The translations under genes were made by a program, and so were the position numbers. Positions 5,061 through 35,374 of a stretch of 39,243 nt of DNA are shown here, one piece after another. Position 1 is the first letter of the stretch. Each line of letters opens with the position of its first letter. Source of the stretch: Eubacteriales bacterium (GTDB lineage: Bacteria > Bacillota > Clostridia > Oscillospirales > CAG-272); the NCBI GenBank assembly GCA_045655025.1, contig JAZOOM010000235.1:1-39243 (forward strand). Direction: 5' to 3'. The notes beneath the pieces are model-generated. The model saw only the letters and a program-made list of their open reading frames with translations. It made no database searches and was not told the origin of the DNA.

Positions 5061-6386
5061 ATGTCAAAACGTAAACTTATCCCCATCGCTATCACCCTTG
5101 CCGCTCTGCTGGCGGTGGCTTTGTTTGCCGTCTCGCTGGCCTCCCGCCGCGCCCATGTCATCGGTAACGAGACCTATACCGAGGCTCCAAGTGAAACCCT
5201 ATCCCCTGACGAGCAATATCCTGCGGAGATAGATTGGATCGCCCTGTTTGAGGAATACGGAAATCTACGAAGTGAATCGGGTGCTACCAATAGTAACACG
5301 CCGTTCTTTTACTACTGGGAAAGTAATCAGTACAGCGAAACGCCCATTTTCAGCAAGACTGCGCGAACGCTGGATATACTCTGCAAGGAAGCCTTCTGCA
5401 CCCACGAGACCTGCATATTCAGCGACGCCGATGAGTGGTTTCTGTGTGGAGTCGCGTATTTGAACGGCCGCATCTATTTCCTTCAAGATCAAATTACCGA
5501 CCTGCAAGCCCGTCGCCTGTGCTCCACAGACCTCCACCTGAACGACCCGAGGATCGAGTGGGAGCAGTCTAAGGGGCTGGAATCCATGCAGGCGGACGGG
5601 GAACGGCTGTATTTCGAGGAAACGGTCTATGATGAAAACGGAACGCCGATCTACAACACGGTATCCTGGTATGACCCCGCGAGCCGGGAATCCGGTTTTG
5701 TTTCCGAAACACTTCACGTCAAGAATTATATCGTCAGAAACGACCGGGTGTATGTGTTGCAAGGCCGCAACAAGGTCGTATGCTGCCGGGTGGATGATCT
5801 GACGATCAGCACCCTGCTCGAACTGGAATTGAAGGATACCCAACAGATCATTTTGGAATATGTGGATGACCAATATCTGGTGTATACCGTCATGTTCGGC
5901 TACCAAATCGGCGAGCCCCAAAGATGTCAGCTGGACACGGGAGAGGTATCCTCCTACTATGATATGCTTCCGCAGGGGTACACCTATCTGCTCGGCGAAA
6001 ATTTCGGAGATCAGGCCTTTCTGTGCATCGACCACAGCGGAGAAGCGTATGCGGAGGATCCCTACCACGATTTTTACACGGATATGTACACGGCAGAAAT
6101 CACGTCGAATAAGTCTTTGATGGCGGGGCGTATCTATACGCTTACGAACGAGGGTACACTCCGTGAGCTTGTACAGCTCACGACCGACGGGATTCCCGAC
6201 TTGATCTGGGGTATTGTGGACTACGACGGCCGCTATCTGTACGTAGACTATCAGACCTACAAGGATTACAGAAACGAGTACAATCCCGAGGGAGATCGCC
6301 GTAATTCGGATTGGCATTTGGCGGTCATTGATACCCAGACAGGGCAGGTCGTAAAGCCCTGCGAAACCGAAACGACTCAAGAATAA
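5061..6386 (+). CDS. Membrane-tethered or secreted propeller-like protein, subfamily B (B1)
   Basis: RBS AAAGGAG. N-terminal hydrophobic anchor without a lipobox Cys (LFAVSLASRRAH). Motifs LCKEAFCTHETCIF, DPYHDFYTDMY, GRIYTLTNEG, QLTTDGIPD, YQTYKDYRNEYNP. Confidence 0.88.
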   Translation: MSKRKLIPIAITLAALLAVALFAVSLASRRAHVIGNETYTEAPSETLSPDEQYPAEIDWIALFEEYGNLRSESGATNSNTPFFYYWESNQYSETPIFSKTARTLDILCKEAFCTHETCIFSDADEWFLCGVAYLNGRIYFLQDQITDLQARRLCSTDLHLNDPRIEWEQSKGLESMQADGERLYFEETVYDENGTPIYNTVSWYDPASRESGFVSETLHVKNYIVRNDRVYVLQGRNKVVCCRVDDLTISTLLELELKDTQQIILEYVDDQYLVYTVMFGYQIGEPQRCQLDTGEVSSYYDMLPQGYTYLLGENFGDQAFLCIDHSGEAYAEDPYHDFYTDMYTAEITSNKSLMAGRIYTLTNEGTLRELVQLTTDGIPDLIWGIVDYDGRYLYVDYQTYKDYRNEYNPEGDRRNSDWHLAVIDTQTGQVVKPCETETTQE

Positions 6387-10036: not shown

Positions 10037-11464
10037 ATGTCCAAAAAACGCATCATTGCCATCATTTCGGTCGCCCTTATCCTCGTTGCGGCCATTGCCA
10101 TATCCATCCCCCTCATCACCCGCCGCGCAAGCATCGTAGGCGACGAGACCTATACCGAGGCTCCTGCGGAGACCCTGTCCCCCGACGAGTGCTACCCCAT
10201 CTCCGAGGCGGACTGGGAGGCTATTTTCGAGCAGTACGGAGCTCCGGCCAGCACGACCAATTATAACTTGGTTAACACCCCTTATTATACCTTCCTGTCC
10301 CATACCTACGGCAGTAGTAAGGCCTACAGCAAGGTCTCCCAGACCTATGTTGAGCTTTGCCCCGATCCCTTCTGCACTCATGAGGAGAGGAGTGATTGCC
10401 AGTTTTCGACCGGTCGTTCCTTCGAGGGTGCCGTCTACCTGAACGGACGGATCTACGTGCAAACCTCCGACTTCGATCAAAGAGACGTCCGTCTGCTGTC
10501 TTTCGATGAGCATCTGGCCGATCTGCGGGTGGAGCTGGATCCCATGCCCACCGTCTCCTATAAAGGCACGGTCGGCGGGGCAATCATCTCGGGTGGTGAT
10601 CGCATCGAGATAAATAAAGAGACCCTGATGTTCAGCTCCTGGTCGGATATGCAGGCCGACGGAGACCGTCTGTATTTTTCCACCGAGATCTATGATCTCG
10701 ACGGCAAGAAGCTCCGCAGTACGGTGATCTGGTACGACCCCGCAACGGGAGAGTACAAGCACGTAAACGAGTCTGTGGCCATGTCGGGCTTTATCGTGCG
10801 AAATGGCGTCGTATACGCCACTCAGGATCGCTATCGCCTCATTGCTTGCAACGTGGCTACGGGCGAGGTCAAGACCCTTCTGGAGGTGGAAAAGCATCTG
10901 TCTGTAAGCCTTTCCTCGGTAAGCGATGTGTGCGTAGAATACCATACCACGGATTGGGCGACCCAAAACCTGGATACGGTGGAATACATGTACGACCTGA
11001 CGACCGGGCAGAGTAAGCTGCGGAGTGAGCTGAATCCAATGGACAAGAACGTGGTAGCCAGCTACTTCTATGGGGACACTACCTTCTGCATAGTGGATCA
11101 CAGCGGAGAGGCCTACAAGGACGACCCGGGCTATGACTTTTACACGGCCGAGGATACCGCCAAAAGCTCAAGCGGCCGCGCCGCCTGGGCAGGGCGTATC
11201 TACCGTCTGGAGACCGACGGGAGTCTTACCGAAGTGGCACAGCTCACCACCAAGGGTATCCCCGACATGATCTGGTGGCTTATGGGCTTTGACGGACGGA
11301 TGCTGTACGTGAGCTATCAGACCTATCTGGACTACCCCAACAGCCTGTGTGACCAGCCCTCGTACAGCGCTACGGTGTTCCGTAACGCCGCCATTGACAC
11401 TCTGACGGGTAAGGTCTACAAGCTTCCCTCCTTCCCGGAGCTGGATCTGGAGAAAGAGGACTGA
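10037..11464 (+). CDS. Membrane-tethered or secreted propeller-like protein, subfamily B (B2)
   Basis: RBS AAAAGGAG. Anchor AIAISIPLITRRAS. Motifs LCPDPFCTHEERSDCQF, DDPGYDFYTAED, GRIYRLETDG, QLTTKGIPD, YQTYLDYPN. N-terminal ETYTEAPxETLSPDE is shared with B1. Confidence 0.88.
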   Translation: MSKKRIIAIISVALILVAAIAISIPLITRRASIVGDETYTEAPAETLSPDECYPISEADWEAIFEQYGAPASTTNYNLVNTPYYTFLSHTYGSSKAYSKVSQTYVELCPDPFCTHEERSDCQFSTGRSFEGAVYLNGRIYVQTSDFDQRDVRLLSFDEHLADLRVELDPMPTVSYKGTVGGAIISGGDRIEINKETLMFSSWSDMQADGDRLYFSTEIYDLDGKKLRSTVIWYDPATGEYKHVNESVAMSGFIVRNGVVYATQDRYRLIACNVATGEVKTLLEVEKHLSVSLSSVSDVCVEYHTTDWATQNLDTVEYMYDLTTGQSKLRSELNPMDKNVVASYFYGDTTFCIVDHSGEAYKDDPGYDFYTAEDTAKSSSGRAAWAGRIYRLETDGSLTEVAQLTTKGIPDMIWWLMGFDGRMLYVSYQTYLDYPNSLCDQPSYSATVFRNAAIDTLTGKVYKLPSFPELDLEKED

Positions 11465-11499: not shown

Positions 11500-11581
11500 A
11501 AAAATCGTGCCACTCGGATATTTCGCGAAATCGGATTGTATGGTACAATAGGGCTGTACGATCCGATCTCATTCCGTACAG
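11500..11581 (+). promoter_or_regulatory. Conserved promoter cassette (palindrome + extended -10 + leader hairpin) for A3
   Basis: 11500..11565 is identical to 1387..1452. Palindrome ATTTCGCGAAAT at 11520..11531. TGgTACAAT at 11541..11549. Hairpin arms CTGTACG (11554..11560) and CGTACAG (11575..11581) are conserved while the loop differs from copy 1. Confidence 0.6.
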
Positions 11582-11595
11582 AAAGGAAAACGATT

Positions 11596-12987
11596 ATGAA
11601 AAAGCCATTATTGCTCGTATTGACAGCCATGCTGCTGCTGTCCTCGTTTGCTTCGTGCTCCCGCCGCGGGCAGTACGAGGACATTCTGGAAAGCCAAAAG
11701 GAAGCCGAATCCCTTGATGCCATCCCCGAAACAAATGGGAACATCACGGGTGAAAGTGCTCCCGATTATGAAACTCCCATCATGCTAAAAACAGGAGACG
11801 CTCCCTATTGGGAAGGAAAAACCATGGAGGAGCTGCAGGCCATCTACAGAAGCACGGCTACCAAGAGGAATTCCGGTCAAACCGTAATGCCTACGGGAAA
11901 GCTATACTCCATGAACAACGGAGAAATGTTCTTCTACAACAAGCTCACGGGCAATATCAGCAACTGGTGCAGCGATCCTCTGTGTAATCTCGCAGAAAAC
12001 GATCAGTGTATCTGGTGGGACTTCAAGGAGATCGTTTACGTCAGTGATGCATACATCTACTTTCAGACGGCGGATTTTTACAACGACTATAAAATGTACC
12101 GATGCGATCTGCAAAGGAACAACGTAGAGGAGGTCTTTGACATACTGGAATACATCGACCACGAGAGCTCCCCGGACGGCTTGGCAGGTACGACCGACGT
12201 ATCCGTGGATGACGCGGACGTGATCTATGAAAAGGACGGTGTGCTGTACTATCTGCAAGCCCATCTCGTCGATACCAAGAGCGTCAGCTCCGTGTACGCC
12301 ATGGATCTCAAGTCCAAGGAGATCACGGCCCTTTCGGGAGATCAGGATATCCATTTCATAAAGATCGCCGCCGATCAGGTGTTCTATACTCTTTCCTCTG
12401 CGCCTTATACCTGGTATCAGACCGATCCGGCCTTTACTGCATCCAAGAAGATATTTGACGACACCGTCATTCACCATGTTAACGATCAGTATCTGATCCT
12501 TGGCAGAATGGTGGGGGGACAGGTGACGGACGCCCTGTTTTCCTATGATCTGAAAACGGGAGAGACCTATGAGCTGAACGACCAGCGCGGGAATACCTAT
12601 CTGTCGGGCGTGTACCTGTATTACACCAGAAATCTCACCGAGGAGGAAATGGAAAACGATCCCCTAAAGGACTATTATACCTATAAGGCCTCCGGTAAGA
12701 ATCCCTCGACAACACAAGGAGCGGGGAAAATCTACCGCGTCTACGTTGGCGAGGATAAAGCCCCCGAGGAATGTGTGTTTCAGCTTACCTATAAGGGTAT
12801 TCCTGTCCGCCTCAAGGATATCGAAATGGACGGCGAGACCATCTATATCTCCTTCAACAACCACGAGGGCTTCAAGAATTTCTACAATCAGGACTTCCGT
12901 GGGAGCGATAGAGATACCTGCGTTTACGGCATTGTTGATCTGCAAAGCGGGAGCGTGAGCTTCCTAGAGATTCCCAAGGAGGAGTAA
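11596..12987 (+). CDS. Cell-surface propeller-like lipoprotein, subfamily A (A3)
   Basis: The track start at 11536 lies inside the promoter -10 and leader. ATG 11596 has the RBS GAAAGGAAAA and begins MKKPLLLVLTAMLLLSSFASC (lipobox). Motifs FYNKLTGNISNWCSDPLC...CIW, YRCDLQRNN, DPLKDYYTYKA, GKIYRVY, FNNHEGFKNFYNQD. Closest relative is A1. Confidence 0.9.
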   Translation: MKKPLLLVLTAMLLLSSFASCSRRGQYEDILESQKEAESLDAIPETNGNITGESAPDYETPIMLKTGDAPYWEGKTMEELQAIYRSTATKRNSGQTVMPTGKLYSMNNGEMFFYNKLTGNISNWCSDPLCNLAENDQCIWWDFKEIVYVSDAYIYFQTADFYNDYKMYRCDLQRNNVEEVFDILEYIDHESSPDGLAGTTDVSVDDADVIYEKDGVLYYLQAHLVDTKSVSSVYAMDLKSKEITALSGDQDIHFIKIAADQVFYTLSSAPYTWYQTDPAFTASKKIFDDTVIHHVNDQYLILGRMVGGQVTDALFSYDLKTGETYELNDQRGNTYLSGVYLYYTRNLTEEEMENDPLKDYYTYKASGKNPSTTQGAGKIYRVYVGEDKAPEECVFQLTYKGIPVRLKDIEMDGETIYISFNNHEGFKNFYNQDFRGSDRDTCVYGIVDLQSGSVSFLEIPKEE

Positions 12988-15329: not shown

Positions 15330-16193
15330 ATGCTCACCATCAACAATCTTTCCAAATCCTACGGCTCCAACCTCGCCCTCAATCAGTTCACCTACACCTT
15401 CGACCACGGCATCTACGCCCTGTTGGGCCCCAACGGCTCGGGCAAGTCTACGCTTATGAACATCGTCACCCAGAACCTCAAATCCGACAACGGTGAGATT
15501 CTGTTGGACGATACCCCCATCGGCAAGCTGGGTGCATCCTACCGCGAAAAGCTGGGTTTTATGCCCCAGTATCCCGGTATGTACCCCTCTTTCTCGGCTC
15601 TCGACTTCCTCCGCTATATGGCCGTGCTGAAGGGGCTGAACAAAAAGAAAGCCGATGAGCAGATCGACGAGCTTTTGCACGCCGTGGAGCTTCACGACGT
15701 GAGAACCCACCGTATCGGTTCTTTCTCGGGCGGTATGAAGCAACGCCTTGCCCTGGCTCAATCTCTGCTCGGTGACCCCGAAATCGTCATTCTTGACGAA
15801 CCCACAGCCGGTCTTGACCCCAAGCAGAGAATCGCCATCCGTAATTACATAGCCAGCGTAGCCCTCAATAAGACTGTCATTATTGCCACTCACGTAGTTT
15901 CCGATGTGGAGTTTATCGCCCGTGAGGCCATCATGCTCAAAAAAGGCGTGATCTCGGACAGCGGAAGTCCCTACGAGCTGACTCAGAAGATCGAGGGCCA
16001 GGTCTGGCAGACCGTGGTAGCCGCCGAGGAGGTACAGGCTATGCAGGAAAAGTTCCGCGTGGTCAACATCCAGAACGGTGAGCAGGGGGTGATTCTGCGC
16101 ATTTTGTCCGATGTGAAGCCCACCGAGGATTCCGTGACCGTGGTGCCGTCCTTGGAGGATTACTATCTCTACGTGTTCGGGGATATCCTCTGA
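15330..16193 (+). CDS. ABC transporter ATP-binding protein (ATPase1)
   Basis: Walker A GPNGSGKST, Q-loop MPQ, signature FSGGMKQRLALA, Walker B IVILDEPTAGLD, H-loop IATH. By my alignment it has 6 amino-acid differences from 21797..22660. Confidence 0.95.
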   Translation: MLTINNLSKSYGSNLALNQFTYTFDHGIYALLGPNGSGKSTLMNIVTQNLKSDNGEILLDDTPIGKLGASYREKLGFMPQYPGMYPSFSALDFLRYMAVLKGLNKKKADEQIDELLHAVELHDVRTHRIGSFSGGMKQRLALAQSLLGDPEIVILDEPTAGLDPKQRIAIRNYIASVALNKTVIIATHVVSDVEFIAREAIMLKKGVISDSGSPYELTQKIEGQVWQTVVAAEEVQAMQEKFRVVNIQNGEQGVILRILSDVKPTEDSVTVVPSLEDYYLYVFGDIL

Positions 16194-16243: not shown

Positions 16244-17014
16244 TTAGGAATGGTTATCCAAGTTTTTCAGCACCATCAGGGTGGTAAAGACCCGATCCTC
16301 GCAGGAAAATACCAGCTCTCCCTTGTACTTACGCACTAAAGCACGCATGGTGGGGATTCCCAATCCGTGCCGTTCGGGGGAGCCCTTGGCGGTCTCCAGA
16401 CGTTGAATATCCACGTCCCGCAACACCGCGTTTTTCACTAGGATCACCAACGTCTCGTGCTTGACCGTCACCGTCACCGATACCCACCGCGCTCCCTCGT
16501 TCGGGATCCTTGCCGCCGCCTCAATGGCGTTGTCCAGGGCGTTTCCCAGCAGGATGGCCAGATCCACGTAAGGCACCGTCACCGAGGGGAGCTTGTGGGC
16601 GTGATACTCCCACCCGATGCCCTTGTCCCGTGCTAACGCCGCTTTGGTGTTGATGAGGGTGGTGATAAGATCGTTTTCCCCCGTCACCAGACGGATCTCC
16701 CCCAGCCGTTCCAGCTCGGCCTCCACCGAGGCGATCGCCTCGGCTGTGTTTCCCTGCGAGAGGGTCGCCAGCAGCCCCATAAGGAAATGCCGCTGATCGT
16801 GCTGCATTTTCAGAAGATCCCGATGGTTGTCCATGATGAGGCGGTACTGCTCGGCCTGGGTGGCCGCCGTCTCCCGCGCTTTTTTATCTCGCGCATCCCT
16901 GAGCCGTTCCCGCTCCTTCCGTAAACGGAGGGTGGACACCAGCACCCATGAAAGAAGCAGCAGGAGCAACAGCGACAGTCCCGCCGCCAAGATCCAGAAT
17001 ATGGGCTTTTCCAT
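16244..17014 (-). CDS. Single-TM GHKL sensor histidine kinase (AgrC/LytS-like HPK10 core, no obvious sensor domain)
   Basis: One N-terminal TM (IFWILAAGLSLLLLLLLSWVLV), a charged helical linker, H-box QHDQRHFLMGL, N-box LLGNALDNAIEA, G-box GLGIPTMRALV. ATG 17014 overlaps the RR stop (TGATG). GTG 17017 is the alternative start. Confidence 0.85.
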   Translation of the reverse strand: MEKPIFWILAAGLSLLLLLLLSWVLVSTLRLRKERERLRDARDKKARETAATQAEQYRLIMDNHRDLLKMQHDQRHFLMGLLATLSQGNTAEAIASVEAELERLGEIRLVTGENDLITTLINTKAALARDKGIGWEYHAHKLPSVTVPYVDLAILLGNALDNAIEAAARIPNEGARWVSVTVTVKHETLVILVKNAVLRDVDIQRLETAKGSPERHGLGIPTMRALVRKYKGELVFSCEDRVFTTLMVLKNLDNHS

Positions 17015-17718
17015 CACGAATACCTCTCCACGTAGCCGGCATAGGCCAGAAGCACCTCGGATTTCTTCCGTACGCTCATCATGACCCGCTCGCCGTTCTG
17101 TAGGATCACATCGTAGCCATCGAACTCGGATACCTTGTCCAGATTGACAATATACCCTTGATGCACCTGATAAAAGCCGTAATCCCGCAGAGCCTCCATG
17201 GCATCGGATAGCCGCCCCAGGGTATCATAGACCCGATCGGCGGTGTGGTACAGGATGTGCTTGCGGTTGCATTCCACGTAGAAAATATCGTGGACGGGCA
17301 GACGGATGGACTGTCCCCCCACGCGGATGACGTGGTAGCGGTGGAGCATACGGTACTTGTCGGAAGCCCGCTCCAGAATGCGGTGCACCTTCTCCAGGGT
17401 ACAGGGCTTCAGTATGTAGTGAAAGGCCTCGCAGTCGTAGGCCTCGATGGCATACTGTGGAAATCCCGTGGCGAAAATGAGGATGGCGGCCGCATCCAAC
17501 TCACGGATGCGCTGTCCCACCTCCAGCCCCGTGAGCCCGGGCATTTCCACGTCCAAAAACAGAATATCGAAGCGCTCGCCCCGATCGTAGGCGTCCAATA
17601 GGGATCGACCCGAGGTGAACACGGCGACCTCGGGGGACAGCTCGGGGTCAAAGCGTCGGCACAGCCCCGCCAGCATCTCCCCGTCGGTAGAAGCGTCGTC
17701 ACATACAGCAATTCTCAT
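17014..17718 (-). CDS. LytTR-family response regulator
   Basis: REC domain (IAVCDD, FLDVEMPG, ILKP) plus a C-terminal LytTR domain (IFYVE...FYQVHQGYIVNLDKV). I moved the start to ATG 17718, which has GGGAGAG 7 nt upstream. The track start at 17760 sits on the predicted -10 element. Confidence 0.88.
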   Translation of the reverse strand: MRIAVCDDASTDGEMLAGLCRRFDPELSPEVAVFTSGRSLLDAYDRGERFDILFLDVEMPGLTGLEVGQRIRELDAAAILIFATGFPQYAIEAYDCEAFHYILKPCTLEKVHRILERASDKYRMLHRYHVIRVGGQSIRLPVHDIFYVECNRKHILYHTADRVYDTLGRLSDAMEALRDYGFYQVHQGYIVNLDKVSEFDGYDVILQNGERVMMSVRKKSEVLLAYAGYVERYS

Positions 17719-17748
17719 GGTCATACTCTCCCATTTTAAGATAACACC

Positions 17749-17777
17749 ATTATACCACATTCCGTGGCTTTTGTAAA
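17749..17777 (-). promoter_or_regulatory. Sigma-A-type promoter of the LytTR RR-kinase operon
   Basis: Read on the minus strand: TTTACA (17777..17772), a 17-nt spacer, then extended -10 TGgTATAAT (17757..17749). Confidence 0.65.
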
Positions 17778-17801
17778 TACGTCAAGACTTCCCAAGGGAC
17801 A

Positions 17802-17829
17802 ACGAATGGGGCGGAAAAAACGACGAATG
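17802..17829 (+). promoter_or_regulatory. Direct repeats ACGAATG spaced 21 bp; candidate LytTR-regulator binding site
   Basis: cAACGAATGG (17802..17808 core) and cGACGAATGC (17823..17829 core). The starts are 21 bp apart. The second repeat ends 11 nt upstream of the + strand -35 and lies about 25 nt upstream of the minus-strand -35. Confidence 0.4.
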
Positions 17830-17840
17830 CGAAACCCGCC

Positions 17841-17869
17841 TTGACCGCTCCCTTCCCTTATCTTATAAT
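17841..17869 (+). promoter_or_regulatory. Sigma-A-type promoter of the C-subfamily / ABC operon
   Basis: TTGACC (17841..17846), a 17-nt spacer, TATAAT (17864..17869). AAAGGAG RBS before ATG 17915. Confidence 0.65.
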
Positions 17870-17914: not shown

Positions 17915-19381
17915 ATGGAAACCAAACGAATTTTTACTGCTGTTCTGGCCGCCTTTATGCTGGCCACGACCTTGGCGTCCTGCTCCCGCCGCGATCAGTT
18001 CCGTCCCGATGAAACCGATGCGCCTACGGGGGAGCAGACCACGGCGGCAGGTCAACCGGATGGAAGTAATCCCAACGAAAGCAATCCCACCGATACCAAC
18101 CCCAACGGTGGTGAAGTAACCGACCCCAATACTACCACCACCCTCGATATTCCCATTGGAGACCCCTCCACGGGCGATGCGGAAAACGGTAAGATCACCG
18201 GCAACCCCTACGAAGGTTGGACAGCCGAGGAGCTGTATGCGTCCTTTATGGAGGATCAGGAGCGGTCGGTTTCCAACAACCAAGACTATGGATTTGGTAA
18301 CACTCCGTATTATGTGATTCTTGATGTCCAGTACGGCGGTTCCATGTTCAGCAAGCTCACGGGGCAGGTGGTGCAGATCTGTAAAGACCCTATCTGTGAC
18401 CATAATAGATGCATATTCAGTCATCTAACGACACGGATGAGAGCTTGTCAAGTTGTGAATGATCGCTGTTATTTGGCGGTGGAAGGGTACAAGGGGGATG
18501 TATATACGTGCAGCTTGTATTCTTTCGATTTGCTTATGAATGATCCGCAGTTGGTTTGTGAATGGGAAGAAATGGATCGTCCCGATACCATATATGTGTA
18601 TCAGGGTAAGATTTACTACGACGCAGATATTAAGTTTGATGACGGCCAATACAGTAACGTGACAATGGTGTACGATATAAACAAGAAAACAACGGCACCT
18701 TTGCACAACGATCCCGTTCGTTGTAGCATGATCGTGTATGAAGGAGCCTACGAGTGGTACACGGCTTGGGAGGACGGCTCTCTGCGGCGGTATAATTTGG
18801 ATACAGACGTGGATGAGGTGATCCTTACGGCAAGCCATTTGGATCGCGAAGCAGGTGAAACGGAGTTTATTTTTTGGGCGGAATCGAATCAACTGGTTTA
18901 CGTACAGAAACGTTTGGCGAATCAAGATTTCTCGAACATTTTGAAATATGACATGAGCACCGGCGAAATGCTGGATACGGGATTTGGCAATTTCATTTTA
19001 TACGGTGATCGTGTATACATAAGCATCAATCATTACGTTGAGGAAAACAAATACGATCCGCACTATGAGTACTATGCTCATGATAGTTTTTCTACGAGAG
19101 ATGGCGGAAAAATCTATCAAAAAGAAACGAATACGGGAGAGTTGAAGGCTTTAGTCCGGCTTTGTACCGACGGAATCCCCGATGCTATGAAAAGTCGTCT
19201 GTTCATGGACGGTCATTTTTTGATGATCCAATATCAAACCTATAAGGATTTCAATAATTGCTACAGCCCCACACTTCCCGGATGGGCAACGAGTAAGCGC
19301 TATGTTGTCGTGAATCTGGAAACAGGGGGAGCGTATGACTTAGGGGTTGATCTTTCAACTCAATCTGTGCACAAACAGTAA
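17915..19381 (+). CDS. Cell-surface propeller-like lipoprotein, subfamily C (C1)
   Basis: Lipobox TTLASC, followed by CSRRDQFRPDETDAPTGEQTT and a Pro/Thr/Asn/Asp linker. Motifs GNPYEGWTAEELYASF, FSKLTGQVVQICKDPICDHNRCIF, LYSFDLLMND, DPHYEYY, GGKIYQ, CTDGIPD, YQTYKDFNNCYSP, VVVNLETG. Confidence 0.9.
   Translation: METKRIFTAVLAAFMLATTLASCSRRDQFRPDETDAPTGEQTTAAGQPDGSNPNESNPTDTNPNGGEVTDPNTTTTLDIPIGDPSTGDAENGKITGNPYEGWTAEELYASFMEDQERSVSNNQDYGFGNTPYYVILDVQYGGSMFSKLTGQVVQICKDPICDHNRCIFSHLTTRMRACQVVNDRCYLAVEGYKGDVYTCSLYSFDLLMNDPQLVCEWEEMDRPDTIYVYQGKIYYDADIKFDDGQYSNVTMVYDINKKTTAPLHNDPVRCSMIVYEGAYEWYTAWEDGSLRRYNLDTDVDEVILTASHLDREAGETEFIFWAESNQLVYVQKRLANQDFSNILKYDMSTGEMLDTGFGNFILYGDRVYISINHYVEENKYDPHYEYYAHDSFSTRDGGKIYQKETNTGELKALVRLCTDGIPDAMKSRLFMDGHFLMIQYQTYKDFNNCYSPTLPGWATSKRYVVVNLETGGAYDLGVDLSTQSVHKQ
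18464..18529 (+). repeat. Near-perfect tract shared with C6 (31408..31473)
   Basis: 36 identical nt, one mismatch, then 29 identical nt. A further 40-nt perfect run is 18588..18627 = 31532..31571. Confidence 0.85.
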
Positions 19382-21796: not shown

Positions 21797-22660
21797 ATGC
21801 TCACCATCCGCGATCTATCCAAATCCTATGGCTCCAATCTCGCCCTCAACCGGTTCACCTACAGCTTTGACCACGGCATCTACGCCCTCCTGGGCCCCAA
21901 TGGCTCGGGAAAATCCACTCTCATGAACATCGTCACCCAGAACCTCAAATCCGACAACGGTGAGATTCTGTTGGACGATACCCCCATTGGCAAGCTGGGC
22001 GCGTCCTACCGCGAAAAGCTGGGGTTCATGCCTCAGTACCCCGGTATGTACCCCTCCTTTTCGGCTCTGGATTTCCTCCGTTACATGGCCGTATTGAAGG
22101 GGCTGAACAAAAAGAAAGCGGATGAGCAGATCGACGAGCTTCTGCACGCCGTGGAGCTTCACGACGTCCGCACCCACCGTATCGGCTCATTTTCGGGCGG
22201 TATGAAGCAGCGTCTTGCCCTTGCCCAAGCTCTGCTCGGTGACCCCGAGATCGTCATTCTTGACGAACCCACCGCCGGTCTTGACCCCAAACAGAGAATT
22301 GCTATCCGTAATTACATAGCCAGCGTAGCCCTCAATAAGACTGTCATTATTGCCACTCACGTAGTTTCCGATGTGGAGTTTATCGCACGCGAGGCCATCA
22401 TGCTCAAAAAGGGCGTGATCTCGGACAGCGGAAGTCCCTACGAGCTGACTCAGAAGATCGAGGGTCAGGTGTGGCAGACGGTCGTAGCCGCCGAGGAAGT
22501 CCAGGCCATGCAGGAAAAGTTCCGCGTGGTTAACATCCAGAACGGCGAGCAGGGTGTGATTCTGCGTATCCTGTCCGACGTGAAGCCCACCGAGGATTCC
22601 GTGACGGTGGTGCCTTCTCTGGAGGATTACTACCTCCACGTGTTCGGAGATATTCTGTAA
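21797..22660 (+). CDS. ABC transporter ATP-binding protein (ATPase3), near-identical paralog of ATPase1
   Basis: Canonical Walker A/B, signature, Q- and H-loops. 287 aa. Differs from 15330..16193 at 6 residues but at many synonymous sites. Confidence 0.95.
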   Translation: MLTIRDLSKSYGSNLALNRFTYSFDHGIYALLGPNGSGKSTLMNIVTQNLKSDNGEILLDDTPIGKLGASYREKLGFMPQYPGMYPSFSALDFLRYMAVLKGLNKKKADEQIDELLHAVELHDVRTHRIGSFSGGMKQRLALAQALLGDPEIVILDEPTAGLDPKQRIAIRNYIASVALNKTVIIATHVVSDVEFIAREAIMLKKGVISDSGSPYELTQKIEGQVWQTVVAAEEVQAMQEKFRVVNIQNGEQGVILRILSDVKPTEDSVTVVPSLEDYYLHVFGDIL

Positions 22661-26634: not shown

Positions 26635-27876
26635 ATGAAACACTACATGAAACTAATCGCTATTCTTGCGGTTCTGTTCACCATGCTCGCCCTTACCGCT
26701 TGCCAAACGGGTATGCCCACAGAGGGCGAGACCAAGCCCGCCTTTGTCAATCCCCACGCCATCGAGCAAAGCGATTGCCTCGTTCACACCTTGGAAAATG
26801 AGGTTTGCACTACCTGCGGCTGGGAATACCAAGTCTCCGATGGCTTGGAGATCGGCATCGACGAGTACAGCGGTCAATACCTCGTCCTTGGCCGCGGGGA
26901 ATGCACCGACACCCAGATCTATCTCCCCACCACCCACGAGGGAAACACCGTCATGGGTGTCGCCATCGGGGCGTTTACGGGGGACGAGACCCTGACCCAC
27001 GTGGTGATCCCCGAGGGCATGACCGTTCTGGGAGACTCCGCTTTCAGCCGTTGCTCCAAGCTGGTTTCGGTAGAGCTTCCGTCAACCGTCCAGACCCTCA
27101 ACCGCGCCTTGTTTGAGGGCTGCTTCCGCCTCACGGACGTTGAACTCCCCGAAGGCATCACGTCCATTCCCGATTCCTTGTTCTCGGGCTGTTCCTCCCT
27201 CAAAAGCATCACCATCCCCTCCACCGTCACGAATCTCCACGGATGGGCCTTCAAAAAATGCCTGCGCCTTACCGAGATCACCATCCCCGAGGGGGTGACC
27301 GAGATCGGCAACGGTGCCTTTGAGGGCTGCCGTGACCTGACCACCCTGTACCTTCCCAAGACCCTCACCACCCTCAACGGATCCACCTTCAAGGACTGCG
27401 AATCCTTGACGGACGTTCACTACAGCGGCACCCTTGCCCAGTGGTGTAGCGTGCGGATCGACTTCCAGGATGCCAGCCCCACCATGCTCGCGGAGAATTT
27501 CTACGTGGACGGCGCACGGATCGAAGGAGACATTACCCTCCCCGAGGGTATCATTACCATTGGCAGTTACACGCTGGCAGGACTCCGCAACGTCACTTCC
27601 GTGACCGTCCCCGCCTCGGTGGCTTCTATTGGCGACAACGCCTTCAAGAACTGCGAAAAGCTTGCCTACCTCGTCTTGCAGGGCTCCACCCACGCGGGCA
27701 GTAACCCCTTCCCGAACACGGCGGTCAAGCACATCTACCTCACCGACACCCGCGAGGACGCCCTTTCCTACATCGCCTACTGGGCGGGTGCCTGCAAGTC
27801 GGCAGGGGCGGAGTTCCATTACGGCGATGCTTGGGAGTATGACGAGAACGGTGTGCCGCGGCTGAAAGAAGAATGA
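26635..27876 (+). CDS. BspA-type leucine-rich-repeat lipoprotein (LRR2)
   Basis: The track start at 26404 lies inside Perm3 in another frame. ATG 26635 follows GGAAAGGAGG and begins MKHYMKLIAILAVLFTMLALTAC (lipobox). C-x2-H-x6-C-x2-C cluster (CLVHTLENEVCTTC). LRR_5-like repeats (ITIPSTVTNLHGWAFKKCLRLTEITIPEGVTEIGNGAFEGC). Confidence 0.88.
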   Translation: MKHYMKLIAILAVLFTMLALTACQTGMPTEGETKPAFVNPHAIEQSDCLVHTLENEVCTTCGWEYQVSDGLEIGIDEYSGQYLVLGRGECTDTQIYLPTTHEGNTVMGVAIGAFTGDETLTHVVIPEGMTVLGDSAFSRCSKLVSVELPSTVQTLNRALFEGCFRLTDVELPEGITSIPDSLFSGCSSLKSITIPSTVTNLHGWAFKKCLRLTEITIPEGVTEIGNGAFEGCRDLTTLYLPKTLTTLNGSTFKDCESLTDVHYSGTLAQWCSVRIDFQDASPTMLAENFYVDGARIEGDITLPEGIITIGSYTLAGLRNVTSVTVPASVASIGDNAFKNCEKLAYLVLQGSTHAGSNPFPNTAVKHIYLTDTREDALSYIAYWAGACKSAGAEFHYGDAWEYDENGVPRLKEE

Positions 27877-27890: not shown

Positions 27891-29372
27891 ATGAAACGAA
27901 TCATAGCTATTTTGTTAGCCTTTATGACTGTCACGGCGGTATTTGCCTCCTGCAACCGCCGCGACAAATTTCGCCCCCCCGAGACCGACGTGCCCACGGG
28001 AGAGCAGACCACGGTCGCGGGACAGCCCGATATAAGTAATCCCGCCGAAACCAAACCTACCGACACCAACCAAAGCGGCGGGGATGTGACCGATCCGGGT
28101 ACCACAACTCCCGACATTCCCATTGGAGACCCCTCCACAGGTGATGCCGAAAACGACAAGATCGCCGGCAACCCTTACGAGGGATGGACAGCCGAGCAGC
28201 TGTATGCGTCCTTTATGGAGGATCAGGAGCGGTCGATTTATAACAACATAAACGAGAAGTTCGGAAATACCCCATATTACGTGATTCTGGGTGTCCAACA
28301 GGGTGGCACCATGTTCAGTAAGCTGACAGGACAGGTGGTGCAGATCTGCAAAGACCCTATCTGTGACCATGAAAATTGTATATTTAGTATGTTACAGCTA
28401 CTGTCATGTCTGGTTGTGGATGACCGTTGTTATCTGCTCATGTCGGGGTTCAAGGGGGATGTTTATGTCACCGGCCTGTATTCTTTCGATCTGCTCATGA
28501 ATGACGCAAAACTGGTTTGTGAGTGGAGCGGTGCCGATGCCCCCAGAAAAGCACACATACACAACGATAAGCTTTACTATTCTACGGAGATGAAGTTTGA
28601 TGACGGACAATACGACAGAGTCACAATGGTCTACGATATGAAGGAGAAAACAACCTCCCCTCTCCACCAAGAGCCGATTCGTTCCGGCGTAATTTGGTAT
28701 GAAGGTGCTTACGAATGGTACACGTTGCAGTCGGATGGTTCTCTCCGACGCTACAATATGGATACGGGAGAGGACGAGGAGATCCTTGCCGGAAGTCTCT
28801 TGAATCATGAGGAAGGCGAAACGGGCTTCTATTATATGGGTTCGGTCGGTCAGAAGGTATACGTTATGAAATATTTAACCGTAGGAGGGAACACAAATTG
28901 CAAGGAGTATGACCTGGAAACTGGTAATATGCAGGACATAGGGGATACGACCGTGTTGCTATACGACGATATGATCTACCAGGGAGTGAGGCACAATGTC
29001 ACGGAATACAAGAACGATCCGCACTATGAGTACTATTCTACGAAGGATAACGCAGGCTGCATCTACGGAGGCAAATTTTTTCAAAGAGACTCGAAAACAG
29101 GAGAGCTGCACGAGGTTGTGAGCCTTTCTACCGACGGAATTCCCGATTGCTTAATGGATTTTTGTATTCTTGACGGAAATTTCTTGATGATTAAATATCA
29201 AACCTATAAGGATTTTCAGAACCCCTACAGTCCCTCAATCCTCGAATGGGCAAGGAGTGATCGTTACGTTGTCGTCAATATGGAAACAGGAACGGTGTAC
29301 GAGCTGGGTGTCGATCTGTCCGACCAATCCTACCACAAATGGCTGGAAAAGCATGAAAAACATGAGAGGTAA
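27891..29372 (+). CDS. Cell-surface propeller-like lipoprotein, subfamily C (C4)
   Basis: ATG 27891 (MKRIIAILLAFMTVTAVFASC) with an AAAGGAA RBS. The track start at 27873 overlaps the LRR2 stop. Motifs CNRRDKFRPPETDVPTGEQTT, ICKDPICDHENCIF, LYSFDLLMND, DPHYEYY, YQTYKDFQNPYSP. Confidence 0.9.
   Translation: MKRIIAILLAFMTVTAVFASCNRRDKFRPPETDVPTGEQTTVAGQPDISNPAETKPTDTNQSGGDVTDPGTTTPDIPIGDPSTGDAENDKIAGNPYEGWTAEQLYASFMEDQERSIYNNINEKFGNTPYYVILGVQQGGTMFSKLTGQVVQICKDPICDHENCIFSMLQLLSCLVVDDRCYLLMSGFKGDVYVTGLYSFDLLMNDAKLVCEWSGADAPRKAHIHNDKLYYSTEMKFDDGQYDRVTMVYDMKEKTTSPLHQEPIRSGVIWYEGAYEWYTLQSDGSLRRYNMDTGEDEEILAGSLLNHEEGETGFYYMGSVGQKVYVMKYLTVGGNTNCKEYDLETGNMQDIGDTTVLLYDDMIYQGVRHNVTEYKNDPHYEYYSTKDNAGCIYGGKFFQRDSKTGELHEVVSLSTDGIPDCLMDFCILDGNFLMIKYQTYKDFQNPYSPSILEWARSDRYVVVNMETGTVYELGVDLSDQSYHKWLEKHEKHER
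27975..28099 (+). repeat. 125-nt tract 100% identical to 30952..31076 (C4 vs C6 5' regions)
   Basis: Base-by-base comparison from CCCCCCGAGACCGACGTGCCC through GTGACCGATCCGGG found no mismatch. The flanks and the rest of the genes are clearly diverged. Confidence 0.9.
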
Positions 29373-29379
29373 ATCAAGC

Positions 29380-30849
29380 ATGAAAAACAATCGGATTCTA
29401 ACCGCTATTTTGGCCACTCTTCTGCTGGCCTCCTCTCTCGCCTCCTGCTCCCGCCGCGACCAATTCCGTCCCGACGAAACGGATGCACCCACGGGGGAGC
29501 AGACCACGGTTGCGGGGCAGCCTGATGTGAATCATCCCACCGATACCAACCCCAACGGCGGAGATGTAACTGGTCCCAACACCTCCATCCCCGACATTCC
29601 CGTCGGAGACCCCTCCACGGGTGACGCCGAAAACGGCAAGATTACGGGTAACCCCTACGAGGGCTGGACGGCGGAGGAGCTGTATGCGTCCTTTATGGAG
29701 GATCAAGCACGGTCGTCGGTTGGCAATAACACAAACGGTGTTTTTGGGAACACGCCTTATTACATAATTCTTGATGTCCAGTATGGCGGGGCTATGTTCA
29801 GTAAGCTGACCGGGCAGGTGGTGAAGATCTGTAAAGACCCCCTCTGCGATCATGAAGCCTGTATATTCAGTAATGTAACCTTAATGATGCGTTCAGCATG
29901 TCAGGTCATAAATGACCGTATTTACCTGACATTGGATAAAGCCAACGACAAAACCGTCATGTATTCCTTTGATCTGCTCATGAACGACGCGGAGGTGATT
30001 TATGAATGGAACGGTGCAGACCAGCCCACGAAGGTGTATGTATATCGAAATAAGATTTACTATAACGCGAACATGAAGTTTGATGACGGACAATACGATA
30101 GGGTCACCATGGTGTACGATATGAAGGAGAAAACAACGTGTCCGCTCCGTGAAAAGCCTGTTCATCTCATAACATGGCACCAAGGATTCTATGAATGGTA
30201 CACGAATAAAGAAAACGGTACGCTTGGACGGTACAATCTGGATACGGGCAAGGACGAGATCATCCTTGACGAAAGCTGGCTGGATCGTGAAGCGGGCGAA
30301 ATTGACATTCGTTTTGCGGGGGTATCGGATCAAACGGTTTACGTGTGGAAAAACATCAATCACATCTTCTCGAACTGGCTGAAATACGATATGAGTACCG
30401 GTGAAATGCATGATATGGGAAGCCCAACATTGCTTATATACGATGAAAACATATATACAAGAATCAATCATTACGTAGAAGAAAACAAAAATGACCCTCA
30501 TTATGATTATTATCAAACTTATAACAATAACACTTCAAGCAACGGGACGAAATGGGGCGGAAAATTATACCGTTACAATGCCCAAACGGGAGAGTATGAG
30601 ATTCTCTTCCAGTTATGTACCGACGGTATTCCCGATAACTTAGAGCAGATTTTGATTATGGATGGGAAATATGCCTTGATCCAATATCAGACCTACAAGG
30701 ACTTCACTAACGTCTATAACACCAATATTCCCGAATGGGCAAACAGCCGCCGCTATGTTGTGGTGAATTTGGAAACAGGAACGGTGTATGAATTAGGTGT
30801 CGATCTGGATGACTCATCCTACCACAAATGGCTGGAAAGCCATAGATAA
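29380..30849 (+). CDS. Cell-surface propeller-like lipoprotein, subfamily C (C5)
   Basis: ATG 29380 (MKNNRILTAILATLLLASSLASC). The track start at 29257 is inside C4. Motifs ICKDPLCDHEACIF, MYSFDLLMND, DPHYDYY, YQTYKDFTNVYNT. Confidence 0.9.
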   Translation: MKNNRILTAILATLLLASSLASCSRRDQFRPDETDAPTGEQTTVAGQPDVNHPTDTNPNGGDVTGPNTSIPDIPVGDPSTGDAENGKITGNPYEGWTAEELYASFMEDQARSSVGNNTNGVFGNTPYYIILDVQYGGAMFSKLTGQVVKICKDPLCDHEACIFSNVTLMMRSACQVINDRIYLTLDKANDKTVMYSFDLLMNDAEVIYEWNGADQPTKVYVYRNKIYYNANMKFDDGQYDRVTMVYDMKEKTTCPLREKPVHLITWHQGFYEWYTNKENGTLGRYNLDTGKDEIILDESWLDREAGEIDIRFAGVSDQTVYVWKNINHIFSNWLKYDMSTGEMHDMGSPTLLIYDENIYTRINHYVEENKNDPHYDYYQTYNNNTSSNGTKWGGKLYRYNAQTGEYEILFQLCTDGIPDNLEQILIMDGKYALIQYQTYKDFTNVYNTNIPEWANSRRYVVVNLETGTVYELGVDLDDSSYHKWLESHR

Positions 30850-30861
30850 GGAGGCTTTCTC

Positions 30862-32337
30862 ATGAAACCCAATCGAATCATAACCGCTATTCTGTCCGCT
30901 CTTTTGCTGGCCTCGACTCTCGCCTCCTGCAACCGCCGTGACCAATTCCGTCCCCCCGAGACCGACGTGCCCACGGGAGAGCAGACCACGGTCGCGGGAC
31001 AGCCCGATATAAGTAATCCCGCCGAAACCAAACCTACCGACACCAACCAAAGCGGCGGGGATGTGACCGATCCGGGCACCACAACACCCGATATTCCCAT
31101 TGGAGACCCCTCCACAGGCGATGCCGAAAACGGCAAGATCACCGGCAACCCCTACGAGGGGTGGACAGCCGAGGAACTGTATGCGTCCTTTATGGCGGAT
31201 CAGGAGCGATCGGTTTATAATAACGTAAACGATATGTTTGGTAATACCCCCTATTATGTGATTCTGGACGTCCAGTACGGCGGTTACATGTTCAGTAAGC
31301 TGACGGGACAGGTGGTGCAGATCTGCAAAGACCCTATCTGTGACCATAAGACTTGTATATTCAATCACCGTACATCATGGATGAGATCGTGTCAGGTCGT
31401 GGATGACCGCTGTTATTTGGCGGTGGAAGGGTACAAGGGGGATATATATACGTGCAGCTTGTATTCTTTCGATCTGCTCATGAACGATGCGCGGTTAATT
31501 TGTGAGTGGAAGGATATGGATTGTCCCGACTCCATATATGTGTATCAGGGTAAGATTTACTACGACGCAGAGATAAAGTTTGATGACGGCCAATATGGTA
31601 ACGTTACCATGGTGTACGACATGAAAGAGCAAACAATGTATCCACTCCGTGAACAGCCTGTTCGTTGTACAGCAATCTGGTATGTAGGCGCCTATGAATG
31701 GTACACAAATGCAGAGATCGGCGCGCTTGGACGGTGCAATCTGGACACGGGTAAGGATGAGGTAATCGTATCGTCAAGCCTTTTGGATGCCGAGGCGGGA
31801 GACCTGGATTTCCGTTTTGTGGGGGTATCGGGTCAATCGGTATACGTGAGAAAAAACATTATCGACTATAACCATTTATATCTATGTTATGATATGGAAA
31901 CAGGTGAATTGCAGGAGATAGGAGGAATCACACCGTTCATATACGACGGTACATACTATCAAGTAGTGCTTCATAATGTTGATGAATATAAGGACGATCC
32001 GCACTATGAATACTATTGCAATAGTACCGCTGGACAAACTCGCTTTGGAGGTAAGTTTTATCGGACAGATGAGAAAACGGGGGAACTACACGAGGTTGTG
32101 AATCTTCGTACCGATGATATTCCCGATTCCTTAACAGACTTTTTGCTCCTTGACGGAAAGTTCTTGATGATCGAATATCAAACCTATAAGGATTTTAAAA
32201 ATCCCTACAGCCCCTCTATTCCCGAATGGGCGCGTAGCGAGCGTTATGTTGTCGTGAATCTGGAGACCGGGACGGTGTATGAATTGGGCGTTGATCTGTC
32301 CACCCAATCCTATCATAACCGCCCGGGCAGATCATAA
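30862..32337 (+). CDS. Cell-surface propeller-like lipoprotein, subfamily C (C6), mosaic of C4-like and C1-like segments
   Basis: RBS AAGGAGG. Lipobox STLASC. The N-terminal ~100 aa are nearly identical to C4. The middle (CQVVDDRCYLAVEGYKGDIYTCSLYSFDLLMND...IYVYQGKIYYDAEIKFDDGQY) is nearly identical to C1. Confidence 0.9.
   Translation: MKPNRIITAILSALLLASTLASCNRRDQFRPPETDVPTGEQTTVAGQPDISNPAETKPTDTNQSGGDVTDPGTTTPDIPIGDPSTGDAENGKITGNPYEGWTAEELYASFMADQERSVYNNVNDMFGNTPYYVILDVQYGGYMFSKLTGQVVQICKDPICDHKTCIFNHRTSWMRSCQVVDDRCYLAVEGYKGDIYTCSLYSFDLLMNDARLICEWKDMDCPDSIYVYQGKIYYDAEIKFDDGQYGNVTMVYDMKEQTMYPLREQPVRCTAIWYVGAYEWYTNAEIGALGRCNLDTGKDEVIVSSSLLDAEAGDLDFRFVGVSGQSVYVRKNIIDYNHLYLCYDMETGELQEIGGITPFIYDGTYYQVVLHNVDEYKDDPHYEYYCNSTAGQTRFGGKFYRTDEKTGELHEVVNLRTDDIPDSLTDFLLLDGKFLMIEYQTYKDFKNPYSPSIPEWARSERYVVVNLETGTVYELGVDLSTQSYHNRPGRS
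30952..31076 (+). repeat. 125-nt tract 100% identical to 27975..28099
   Basis: See the partner entry at 27975..28099. Confidence 0.9.
31408..31473 (+). repeat. Near-perfect tract shared with C1 (18464..18529)
   Basis: 36 + 29 identical nt separated by a single mismatch. Confidence 0.85.
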
Positions 32338-33952: not shown

Positions 33953-35374
33953 ATGAAAAAGCTGCTTCTGCTCGCGCTGGCCACCACGATTCTGCTTGCT
34001 TCTTTTGCCTCCTGCTCCCGCCGCGGGGCTTATGAGGATCAATTGGAAAGCCAAAAGGAAGCCGCATCCATGGATGCAGCTATGGACACAGGTCCTGTCC
34101 GCGGTGAGAATCACGAGGACTACGATGTGACCATGGAGATCGACACCGAAGCCAAAACAGAGGGGAATACCTCGGGTAATGTGCAAGATCCGCCCGCCGA
34201 CGAGCCCCCAAGCTCCACATTCTACCGTGGTGGCACGCTCCTGCCCACGGGTAAGAAATACTACGTGAATTCGGTGGCATACTTCTACAACAACTTGACA
34301 GGCAACATCAGCCATTGGTGCAGCGATCCTCTGTGTCCCCACGACGAGAGCTGTATCTGGTCGAGTAATCTGTACGCCAAGCTGGAATACGTCAGCGACA
34401 AGCATATCTATTTCATATCCGACTACGGCGATATGGTGCCTAAGCTGTACCGTTGCGACCTACAGCGGAACAACATTGAGCTTTTGTACGAGCTGCCCGG
34501 CGTGGCCGAGGACAAGGCTACCTACTACGACCATGTTGAGGTGGTCTACGAGAAGGGGGACAAGGTCTATTTCGTCCAGAGCGAATACAAGTCCCAGGGA
34601 AAGAGCGTGACCGCCTTCAAGGTGTTGGACGCGGTTTCCAAGGAGATCACGGTTTTGTCGGGAGACAAGAGCGTACAGATCGAGGCCGTTGTTCGGGACA
34701 TGGTCTACTATTCTCTGCGCGGTGTTGCCTCGGCGGAGGATACGGTGATCTACAAAACCGATCTGTCCTTTGCGAATGCGGAGGAAGCCTTCAAGGCCTG
34801 TACCATCCGTGACTACAACAACGAATATATGCTGATAGAAAAATACGAAAACGGCTACGGCTGGACAACACTCAATCCCGTCTATGCTTACTGCATGAAC
34901 ACGGGCACCTATATCCCCCTGCCCACAGGTGACGGAGCCGTGAACTTCAAGCTGTCGGGGGACTGCGTTTTCTTTGAAAAGCCCCTTTCGGCGGAGGAGA
35001 TCCAAGGCTCCCCCTTGAAGGATTACTATGAATACACCTGGCAGACTCGGGAGGAGATGCCCGACGGCACGGTCATCACCAGCGGGATCAAGAACGCCTC
35101 CACCACCCGCGCGGGGAAAATCTACCGCATGAAGCTTGGGAGTGAGAAAATCGAATGCGTGGTGAGCTTTGCCTACAAGGATATCCCTGTTCGCATTGAG
35201 GACTTTGAGGTAAATGGTGACAAGGTTTACTTCACCTTCAAAAACCACGAGGAGTTCAAGAATTTCTACAATCAGGATTTTGACGAAATGAGTCAATATG
35301 TATTCCCTCATTACGCCGTAGCGGATCTGAAGGGACAGAATGTGACCATTTTGAGCTTTGACGGGCTGGATTAA
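33953..35374 (+). CDS. Cell-surface propeller-like lipoprotein, subfamily A (A4)
   Basis: Lipobox LLASFASC. Motifs CSRRGAYEDQLESQKEA, FYNNLTGNISHWCSDPLCPHDESCIW, YRCDLQRNN, SPLKDYYEYTW, GKIYRMKLG, FKNHEEFKNFYNQD. Confidence 0.9.
   Translation: MKKLLLLALATTILLASFASCSRRGAYEDQLESQKEAASMDAAMDTGPVRGENHEDYDVTMEIDTEAKTEGNTSGNVQDPPADEPPSSTFYRGGTLLPTGKKYYVNSVAYFYNNLTGNISHWCSDPLCPHDESCIWSSNLYAKLEYVSDKHIYFISDYGDMVPKLYRCDLQRNNIELLYELPGVAEDKATYYDHVEVVYEKGDKVYFVQSEYKSQGKSVTAFKVLDAVSKEITVLSGDKSVQIEAVVRDMVYYSLRGVASAEDTVIYKTDLSFANAEEAFKACTIRDYNNEYMLIEKYENGYGWTTLNPVYAYCMNTGTYIPLPTGDGAVNFKLSGDCVFFEKPLSAEEIQGSPLKDYYEYTWQTREEMPDGTVITSGIKNASTTRAGKIYRMKLGSEKIECVVSFAYKDIPVRIEDFEVNGDKVYFTFKNHEEFKNFYNQDFDEMSQYVFPHYAVADLKGQNVTILSFDGLD

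Follow-up and report, generated by a model that had tools for sequence, protein, structure and literature searches.

How do neighbouring copies of one gene come to be identical in one stretch and widely diverged in the next, with the nearest relative changing along the gene? The question is raised by seven co-oriented paralogous genes, C1–C7, arranged in tandem on the plus strand of contig JAZOOM010000235.1 from an Eubacteriales bacterium (assembly GCA_045655025.1). The stretch analysed here, the window, is the entire 39,243-nt contig held at NCBI, part of a metagenome-assembled genome (MAG) built from short reads. The genes, delimited from open reading frames (ORFs) and a codon alignment, are C1 (17915–19381, 488 residues), C2 (19407–20891, 494 residues), C3 (22680–24167, 495 residues), C4 (27891–29372, 493 residues from the ATG at 27891), C5 (29380–30849, 489 residues), C6 (30862–32337, 491 residues) and C7 (32351–33823, 490 residues). 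C4 has an alternative in-frame ATG at 27873, and the protein starting at 27891 has an exact match on record. Four of the genes, C4–C7, are contiguous with spacers of 7–13 nt, and the spacers between neighbouring C genes measure 7–25 nt. All seven are full-length, each with a start codon, a signal peptide and a lipobox, and their overall nucleotide identity in the codon alignment is 59–73%. From comparisons of these sequences with one another and with related strains, we conclude that recombination between paralogs at conserved blocks very probably produced the patches, the mosaic genes and the reassortment of modules described below.

The initial annotation of this DNA had reported three sets of shared tracts, all of which were reproduced. 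C4 27975–28099 and C6 30952–31076 are identical over 125 of 125 nt; on a mismatch map, identity remains ∼94–95% for about another 150 nt, and the two genes then diverge abruptly past the codons for CKDPICDH. The perfect tract is part of a larger block, C4 27945–28370, which resembles C6 30922–31347 with 35 mismatches in 426 nt (91.8% identity) and has sharp edges on both sides, upstream in the signal-peptide codons and downstream after the CKDPICDH codons. In the middle of C6, 31408–31473 differs from C1 18464–18529 by one mismatch in 66 nt and 31532–31571 equals C1 18588–18627 (40 of 40 nt). These positions fall in the core (31408–31571, matching 18464–18627) of an extended fragment spanning 31089–31604 in C6 and 18142–18660 in C1. 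Finally, a 26-mer, ATGAAGTTTGATGACGGACAATACGA, is present once each in C4 (at 28590) and C5 (at 30073), within a tract shared by C4 28590–28654 and C5 30073–30137, and the codon alignment contains the peptide block common to these two genes, MKFDDGQYDRVTMVYDMKEKTT.

The nearest paralog of C6 changes repeatedly along its length. In a similarity plot it is C4 at 30910–31087 (95–100%), C1 and C4 about equally at 31087–31350 (∼90%), C1 at 31370–31580 (87–93%), C5 at 31580–31850 (70–80%) and again C4 at 31876–32250 (75–83%). Neighbour-joining trees of successive segments group (C4,C6), (C1,C6), (C5,C6) and (C4,C6) with bootstrap values of 100, 100, 94 and 99%, respectively, and are thus incongruent; trees of nine gene types, in which two types from related strains (X and Y) were added to C1–C7, agree with this incongruence. 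The pairwise homoplasy index (PHI) test on the C1–C7 codon alignment was significant (z = −10.1, p < 0.0005), as it was for third codon positions (p = 0.008), the propeller body (p = 0.001) and the 5′ part (p = 0.001). A GENECONV-style test, in which polymorphic sites are permuted and a global p is obtained, detected a C4–C6 run of 56 consecutive polymorphic sites (27977–28255 and 30954–31232, p ≤ 0.001), a C1–C6 run of 31 sites (18142–18660 and 31089–31604, p ≤ 0.001) and a C4–C5 run of 21 sites (28590–28654 and 30073–30137, p = 0.02, or 0.003 with mismatches allowed); C1–C4 was also significant (p ≤ 0.001). For C6 against C4, the proportion of synonymous differences (pS) rises from 0.10 within the tract to 0.64–0.76 within the body; for C6 against C1, it rises from 0.37 across the middle segment to 0.57–0.76 further downstream. 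The low pS within the tracts therefore excludes constraint at the protein level. The proposal of the initial annotation that the patchwork reflects repeated segmental exchange among tandem paralogs is thus borne out by both kinds of test, the trees, the synonymous sites and, as shown next, related strains.

In databases, the protein nearest to C6 is P0001 (93% identity), which occurs on four contigs from four samples. One orthologue, a6, matches C6 at ∼100% identity between nt ∼290 and ∼1250 of the gene but at 71–83% over nt 79–290, and this low-identity segment coincides exactly with the region of C6 that matches its neighbour C4. Comparison of C4 with its orthologues a4 and b4 gives the mirror-image pattern. 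The roe-deer rectum MAG contig JAFULU010000270.1 (L006) is 100% identical to the window over the 411 nt of 30544–30954, a stretch made up of the 3′ end of C5, the spacer and the C6 signal peptide. No mismatch occurs in 31270–31562 (293 nt), and only eight occur in 31270–32100. Between these flanks, the C6 patch at 30955–31269 (∼315 nt) differs from the L006 allele by 72 mismatches or gaps (∼77% identity), and its left edge coincides with where the perfect C4/C6 tract starts. Since the flanks are 100% identical in L006, the patch is read as a conversion, and such an arrangement carries the expected signature of a non-reciprocal double exchange.

The patch appears to have a layered history. Window C6 is identical from 31020 onward to the C6 alleles of three further loci (L011, L012 and L005), and C6 31077–31269 resembles a4, the orthologue of C4, more closely than it does a6, the orthologue of C6 itself. 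These relationships point to an older C4-type 5′ segment common to some of the C6 alleles, on which the private 125-nt identity is superimposed. The signals for the direction of the private event conflict, as the closeness to a4 favours transfer from C4 to C6 and the sharing from 31020 onward favours transfer from C6 to C4 for the perfect core. Across all related loci that were fetched, other matches to the 125-nt tract reach 94.4% at best and mostly fall at 79–93%; the perfect identity is therefore private to this genome and very recent. An exact 42-nt tract search and a protein-guided scan of Joint Genome Institute (JGI) metagenome contigs were both empty. The closest public relatives are MAGs labelled “Clostridia bacterium” from the gut of goat, roe-deer and water-deer.

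The C6 protein consists of a signal peptide (residues 1–24), a disordered linker extending to about residue 89 and a β-propeller (residues 90–487), and the perfect tract, made up of linker codons, encodes residues 31–72. As these lie within the predicted disordered linker, the recent event would create no new folded surface; only older exchanges within the propeller could do so.

The initial annotation had described C6 as a mosaic of C4 (5′ part) and C1 (middle). Its C4-like 5′ part is supported by the results above, while the origin of the middle is better explained in the opposite direction. When X and Y are included in the trees, C6 forms a stable pair with X from about alignment column 570 to the 3′ end (bootstrap 96–100% as far as column 1310 and 71% for the final segment). 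Only in columns 570–800 does C1 join this pair (100%); its partner is Y in the linker and C5 in columns 1100–1310. C1 is thus itself a mosaic, with a C2-like signal peptide, a Y-like linker, a C6/X-like middle and a C5-like distal part. Because C6 stays with X while the partner of C1 varies, the “C1-like middle of C6” more probably reflects a C6/X-type segment within C1, with C1 as the recipient. The similarity is also old, since a6 is identical to C6 in this region and the segment is common to all C6 alleles.

Exchange in this family extends to whole genes. Since the paralogs align collinearly, a megablast comparison at ≥95% identity carried no information, and global alignments were used instead, together with module typing, in which signal peptide, linker, body and tail were typed at 90% identity in the window and ten related loci. 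Nine main body types (C1–C7, X and Y) were found, each 90–100% conserved across assemblies, and the number and order of genes differ among related strains. The body order is C4-C5-C6-C7 in the window, C4-C6-X-Y-C7 in L001, C4-C6-Y in L003, Y-C1-X-C7 in L008, and C4-C6-C5-Y-X-C7 in L007, L013 and L014, as well as in L016 as far as that contig extends. P0054, the C6 allele of the last order, is present on 12 contigs, one of them 143 kb long, and the fetched loci derive from different samples and assemblers. Thus, unequal crossover, by which whole bodies are deleted, duplicated or re-ordered, is as prominent as patch conversion.

The modules do not travel together within a gene. Signal-peptide type tracks the upstream body in nine of ten distinct combinations, a small sample of about eight non-redundant arrays: after Y the signal peptide is invariably of type S3, joined to a C7, X or C1 body, and after C4 it is invariably S1; S2 comes after C5, joined to C6 or Y, and S5 after C1, joined to C2 or X. 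Paired with their own bodies, the signal peptides occur in 23 distinct combinations, S1 alone with six different bodies, and linker types assort independently of both signal peptide and body. About 100 protein alleles retrieved by cluster look-ups likewise carry combinatorial sets of signal peptide, linker and C-terminal tail. The 3′ part of one gene, the spacer and the next signal peptide are thus conserved as one unit across strains, as also in the 411 nt that are identical between the window and L006.

Several observations were made at the gene ends and on individual loci. Over the last ∼200 nt of C1–C7 (alignment columns 1300–1500; C6 32150–32337), pS is unusually low (0.12–0.38) and the proportion of nonsynonymous differences is equal or higher (0.23–0.37), which might reflect a homogenised unit of 3′ end and spacer, or overlapping signals of the next gene. 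At 29330–29400, and in P0056/L007, the next gene can be extended upstream in frame (MKNMRGKSSMKNNRIL...) over DNA that, read in a different frame, encodes the C4-type tail (..HKWLEKHEKHER), and this longer start is used in some database gene calls. Two alternative tails, STQSYHNRPGRS and SDQSYHKWLEKHEKHER, are swapped among C6 and C4 alleles. In L008 (goat colon MAG contig JAFQOC010000613.1, 1–5808), a C1-type body that is 97–100% identical to window C1 sits between Y and X in the downstream array, whereas in the window C1 adjoins the LytTR system. Whole bodies thus move between sub-arrays. In L005 (goat colon MAG contig JAFQOC010000352.1, 1–3347), the 3′ end of a permease gene and a gene for a lipoprotein with leucine-rich repeats (LRR) are followed by a C4 signal peptide fused to a C6 body. 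Compared with the window, this contig lacks the C4 body, C5 and the 5′ end of C6, and it represents either a natural deletion and fusion across the C4/C6 repeat or a jump by the assembler.

Blocks that could support such exchanges were located by profiling mean pairwise identity over the seven genes in 30-nt windows. Mean identities of 0.75–0.90 were found at C6 30910–31050, 31135–31195, 31252–31340 and 31459–31489, and around 31996 and 32164. Two regions stand out as probable crossover sites: block 1 (30910–31050, mean identity 0.75–0.86), encoding the lipobox and RRDQFRP..GEQTTVAGQPD, and block 2 (31135–31340), encoding GNPYEGWTAEELYASF ... FSKLTGQVV.ICKDP.CDH, which is also the probable 3′ limit of the patches. 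Short blocks kept in every copy comprise the lipobox, GNPYEGW...CKDPxCDH, YSFDLLMND, DPHYEYY and YQTYKDF. We propose that these short blocks serve as substrates for ordinary homologous recombination between copies, presumably RecA-dependent. Double exchanges would leave non-reciprocal patches (gene conversion), such as the 125-nt C4/C6 tract and the C6 patch at 30955–31269, and single unequal exchanges would delete, duplicate or re-order whole bodies. Accumulated exchanges would make each gene a mosaic and account for the reassortment of three modules across strains: the upstream body with its tail, spacer and the next signal peptide; the linker; and the body.

Several points weigh against this account. 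The PHI and GENECONV-style tests were our own implementations, and not GENECONV or RDP, and the segment limits for the trees were picked after viewing the similarity plot. Past the perfect core, the C6 patch is only ∼94% identical to window C4, so a single recent event from C4 to C6 does not account for the whole patch, which requires two or more layers or else patchy heteroduplex repair. The window in its full length is a short-read MAG contig, and the C1, C4, C5 and C6 protein alleles of the window are each on record from this contig alone, which leaves the private 125-nt identity without an independent replicate.

The last two points bear most directly on the possibility of an assembly artefact, in which the assembler threaded C4 or C6 through the linker of the other, or mixed co-existing strains. 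At 125 nt, the tract does not reach the length of a read or a large k-mer, its flanks are blocks conserved among the paralogs, and L005, a short fusion contig, could likewise have arisen by a jump across such a repeat. However, both copies lie on one contig with different flanks, and the identity decays gradually (from 100% to ∼95% and ∼90%) without the sharp edge of a pasted block. A repeat-mediated mis-join swaps flanks and cannot create the repeat itself. Related arrays also recur across samples and assemblers (P0054 on its 12 contigs, P0001 in four samples and P0064 in two samples), and L006 repeats 411 nt and ∼290 nt of the window exactly around the patch. We thus consider an artefact unlikely.

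Slightly less likely still is that the modules were exchanged mainly between strains, by horizontal transfer or allelic recombination. This route would account for module combinations that differ among MAGs from different hosts, and for the presence of the window C6 linker type on both C6 and C5 bodies elsewhere (P0064 and P0082); Tsuru and Kobayashi name it as possible for the lpl genes discussed below (PMC2568036). Import alone, however, leaves unexplained why two paralogous positions in one genome are identical, at 125 of 125 nt within a single contig, when no match elsewhere exceeds 94.4%. Part of the module diversity probably stems from inter-strain import, alongside recombination between paralogs.

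An origin without any exchange, in which simple duplication and divergence were followed by strong purifying selection or nucleotide constraint on the tracts, is very improbable. Some blocks are indeed conserved in all seven copies, and 28100–28370 is ∼90% alike among C1, C4, C5 and C6. The perfect tract, however, lies in the predicted disordered linker, among the most variable parts of these genes (79–94% elsewhere), and synonymous sites are nearly identical there (pS 0.10) while the body is saturated. The switches of nearest neighbour along the gene carry high bootstrap values, and orthologues in other strains lack the C4/C6 identity. Conservation by selection alone was thus rejected, being contradicted by the synonymous-site and orthologue data.

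In the cassette systems of antigenic variation (Neisseria pilE/pilS, Borrelia vlsE and Treponema tprK), a surface protein is altered by non-reciprocal segmental transfer. The C array resembles them in such transfer between related sequences, and differs in its lack of silent or truncated cassettes and of a single expression site, in that its copies are apparently co-expressed, and in that the recent C4/C6 tract affects a predicted disordered linker. The best promoter-like site (TTGACC-17-TATAAT, 11/12) lies upstream of C1 at 17841–17869, and no comparable second site was found on the coding strand inside the array. From this sole strong site and the 7–25 nt spacers, the seven genes are probably co-transcribed, with none a silent cassette. 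Programmed antigenic variation, whether by an expression site fed from silent cassettes or by a diversity-generating retroelement, is scarcely credible: conversion tracts do occur in this multigene array of surface-anchored proteins, but each of the seven copies is complete, the window proteins that were scanned gave no recombinase or reverse-transcriptase hit, the identified genes fill nearly all of the window, and the mismatches beside the 125-nt tract are, in this contig, not confined to one base as the adenine-specific changes of such retroelements would be. A silent-cassette system was rejected on the absence of truncated copies and the single promoter-like site, and a retroelement on the absence of a matched reverse-transcriptase domain and the mismatch pattern, the latter for this contig.

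The C proteins are predicted membrane-anchored lipoproteins. All seven contain a lipobox (L/F-A/V-S-C) after a hydrophobic N-terminus, tested against [LVI][ASTVI][GAS]C. It is followed by a Pro/Thr/Asp/Asn-rich linker of ∼65 residues and then by an all-β domain with invariant Cys-x4-Cys-x4-Cys, DPHYEYY and YQTYKDF motifs. An AlphaFold2 model built with 50 homologues (mean predicted local distance difference test score, pLDDT, 78.8) has a signal helix at residues 4–24, disorder at residues 16–89 (pLDDT < 50) and a β-propeller from about residue 90, for which Foldseek identified only generic propellers in the PDB (kelch, designer propellers and 3s25). No family match was obtained in a Pfam-A scan of the paralogs with E-values up to 10 or in an NCBIfam scan, and a sequence profile search of the PDB gave nothing under E = 0.3. 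A profile search of 1.84 billion representative proteins returned only 503 at E ≤ 0.001. With so few matches and no Pfam, NCBIfam or PDB sequence relative, the family is narrow and previously unnamed.

The window is almost wholly (1–39243) one super-locus, with at least 14 paralogs of this unnamed lipoprotein/β-propeller family in three subfamilies: the C type; a type B (1481–2932, 11536–12987, 33953–35374 and 152–1342); and a transmembrane-anchored type (5061–6386 and 10037–11464). These type-B and transmembrane-anchored paralogs are more distant. The type-B ORF at 152–1342 has a GTG start and no signal peptide; since it aligns to the later part of its relatives, it may be 5′-truncated or frameshifted near the contig start. 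Interleaved with the paralogs are genes for three ∼800-residue permeases, three ATP-binding cassette (ABC) ATPases, two BspA-type LRR (LRR_5) lipoproteins and two extracytoplasmic function (ECF) sigma factors, each of the latter with a putative anti-sigma gene downstream. Two of the ABC ATPase genes (15330–16193 and 21797–22660) share 91% of their DNA and differ at six of 287 residues, with the similarity ending at the gene ends; recent conversion was rejected for this pair, as 91% nucleotide identity with six amino-acid differences indicates a strongly constrained duplicate. Just upstream of C1, and divergently transcribed from the minus strand, are a LytTR response regulator and a GHKL histidine kinase (16244–17760). 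In the 150-nt spacer before C1, two promoter-like sites, each 11/12, stand back to back (17749–17869). The divergent GHKL/LytTR genes and these paired sites adjoining C1 suggest that the array is under two-component control of a quorum or peptide type.

The same recombination model has been published for the tandem lpl (DUF576) cluster of S. aureus νSaα (Tsuru & Kobayashi 2008, PMC2568036). Both systems consist of tandem co-oriented lipoprotein genes with conserved blocks inside the ORFs as recombination sites. In both, trees of the 5′ and 3′ parts of the ORFs are incongruent; the 3′ part, spacer and 5′ part of the next ORF move as a unit; and gene number and order vary by strain through deletion, apparent conversion and translocation. 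In contrast, the C proteins are unrelated to Lpl and fall outside DUF576, having no Pfam-A or NCBIfam match and a predicted β-propeller fold. The main crossover zone of the C array is near the 5′ end, where two blocks surround a separately assorting linker, compared to one central block in lpl, so that three modules are shuffled in the C array and two in lpl. The C array also belongs to an uncultured ruminant-gut Clostridia lineage, and lies amid genes for ABC-2 exporters, BspA-LRR lipoproteins and ECF sigma/anti-sigma pairs.

Two other systems are comparable. In the esaG and tipC type VII immunity gene arrays of Firmicutes (Garrett et al. 2022, PMC9484751), tandem paralogs are likewise non-identical, and recombination at homology blocks explains gain, loss and chimeras. 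Unlike the C family, their products are immunity proteins of the cytoplasm or membrane that are linked to a known toxin system; no toxin or secretion system was identified at the C locus. The csa1 gene accordions in the tandem lipoprotein clusters of S. aureus USA300 (Belikova et al. 2020, PMC7360770) similarly change copy number by recombination between paralogs within closely related strains. The csa1 changes were demonstrated in clonal isolates with long reads, whereas the C array is known from metagenome assemblies only.

No new mechanism is thus revealed by this locus. The mechanism, ordinary homologous recombination among tandem paralogs, is known, and the protein family and the lineage are new. 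The initial annotation saw in the exchanges a way to generate new surface-protein variants; this would be a plausible function, and the shuffling may have adaptive value. The cross-strain comparisons provide evidence that recombination between tandem paralogs shapes a large, unnamed family of surface lipoproteins in an uncultured lineage of gut Clostridia. As a consequence, gene-by-gene orthology, trees and ratios of nonsynonymous to synonymous substitution (dN/dS) are misleading for C-type genes, and short-read MAGs of such loci need confirmation by long reads. More tentatively, and with the odds rather against it, the locus could be a dedicated and selected repertoire system of uncultured ruminant-gut Clostridia, in which three-module shuffling yields strain-specific surface receptors or immunity proteins; the setting for this reading is the set of paralogs among ABC-2 exporters, BspA-type LRR lipoproteins, two ECF sigma/anti-sigma pairs and a LytTR two-component system. 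If true, the repertoire system would be a counterpart of lpl and esaG built from a new protein family, with the exporter as a new functional partner.

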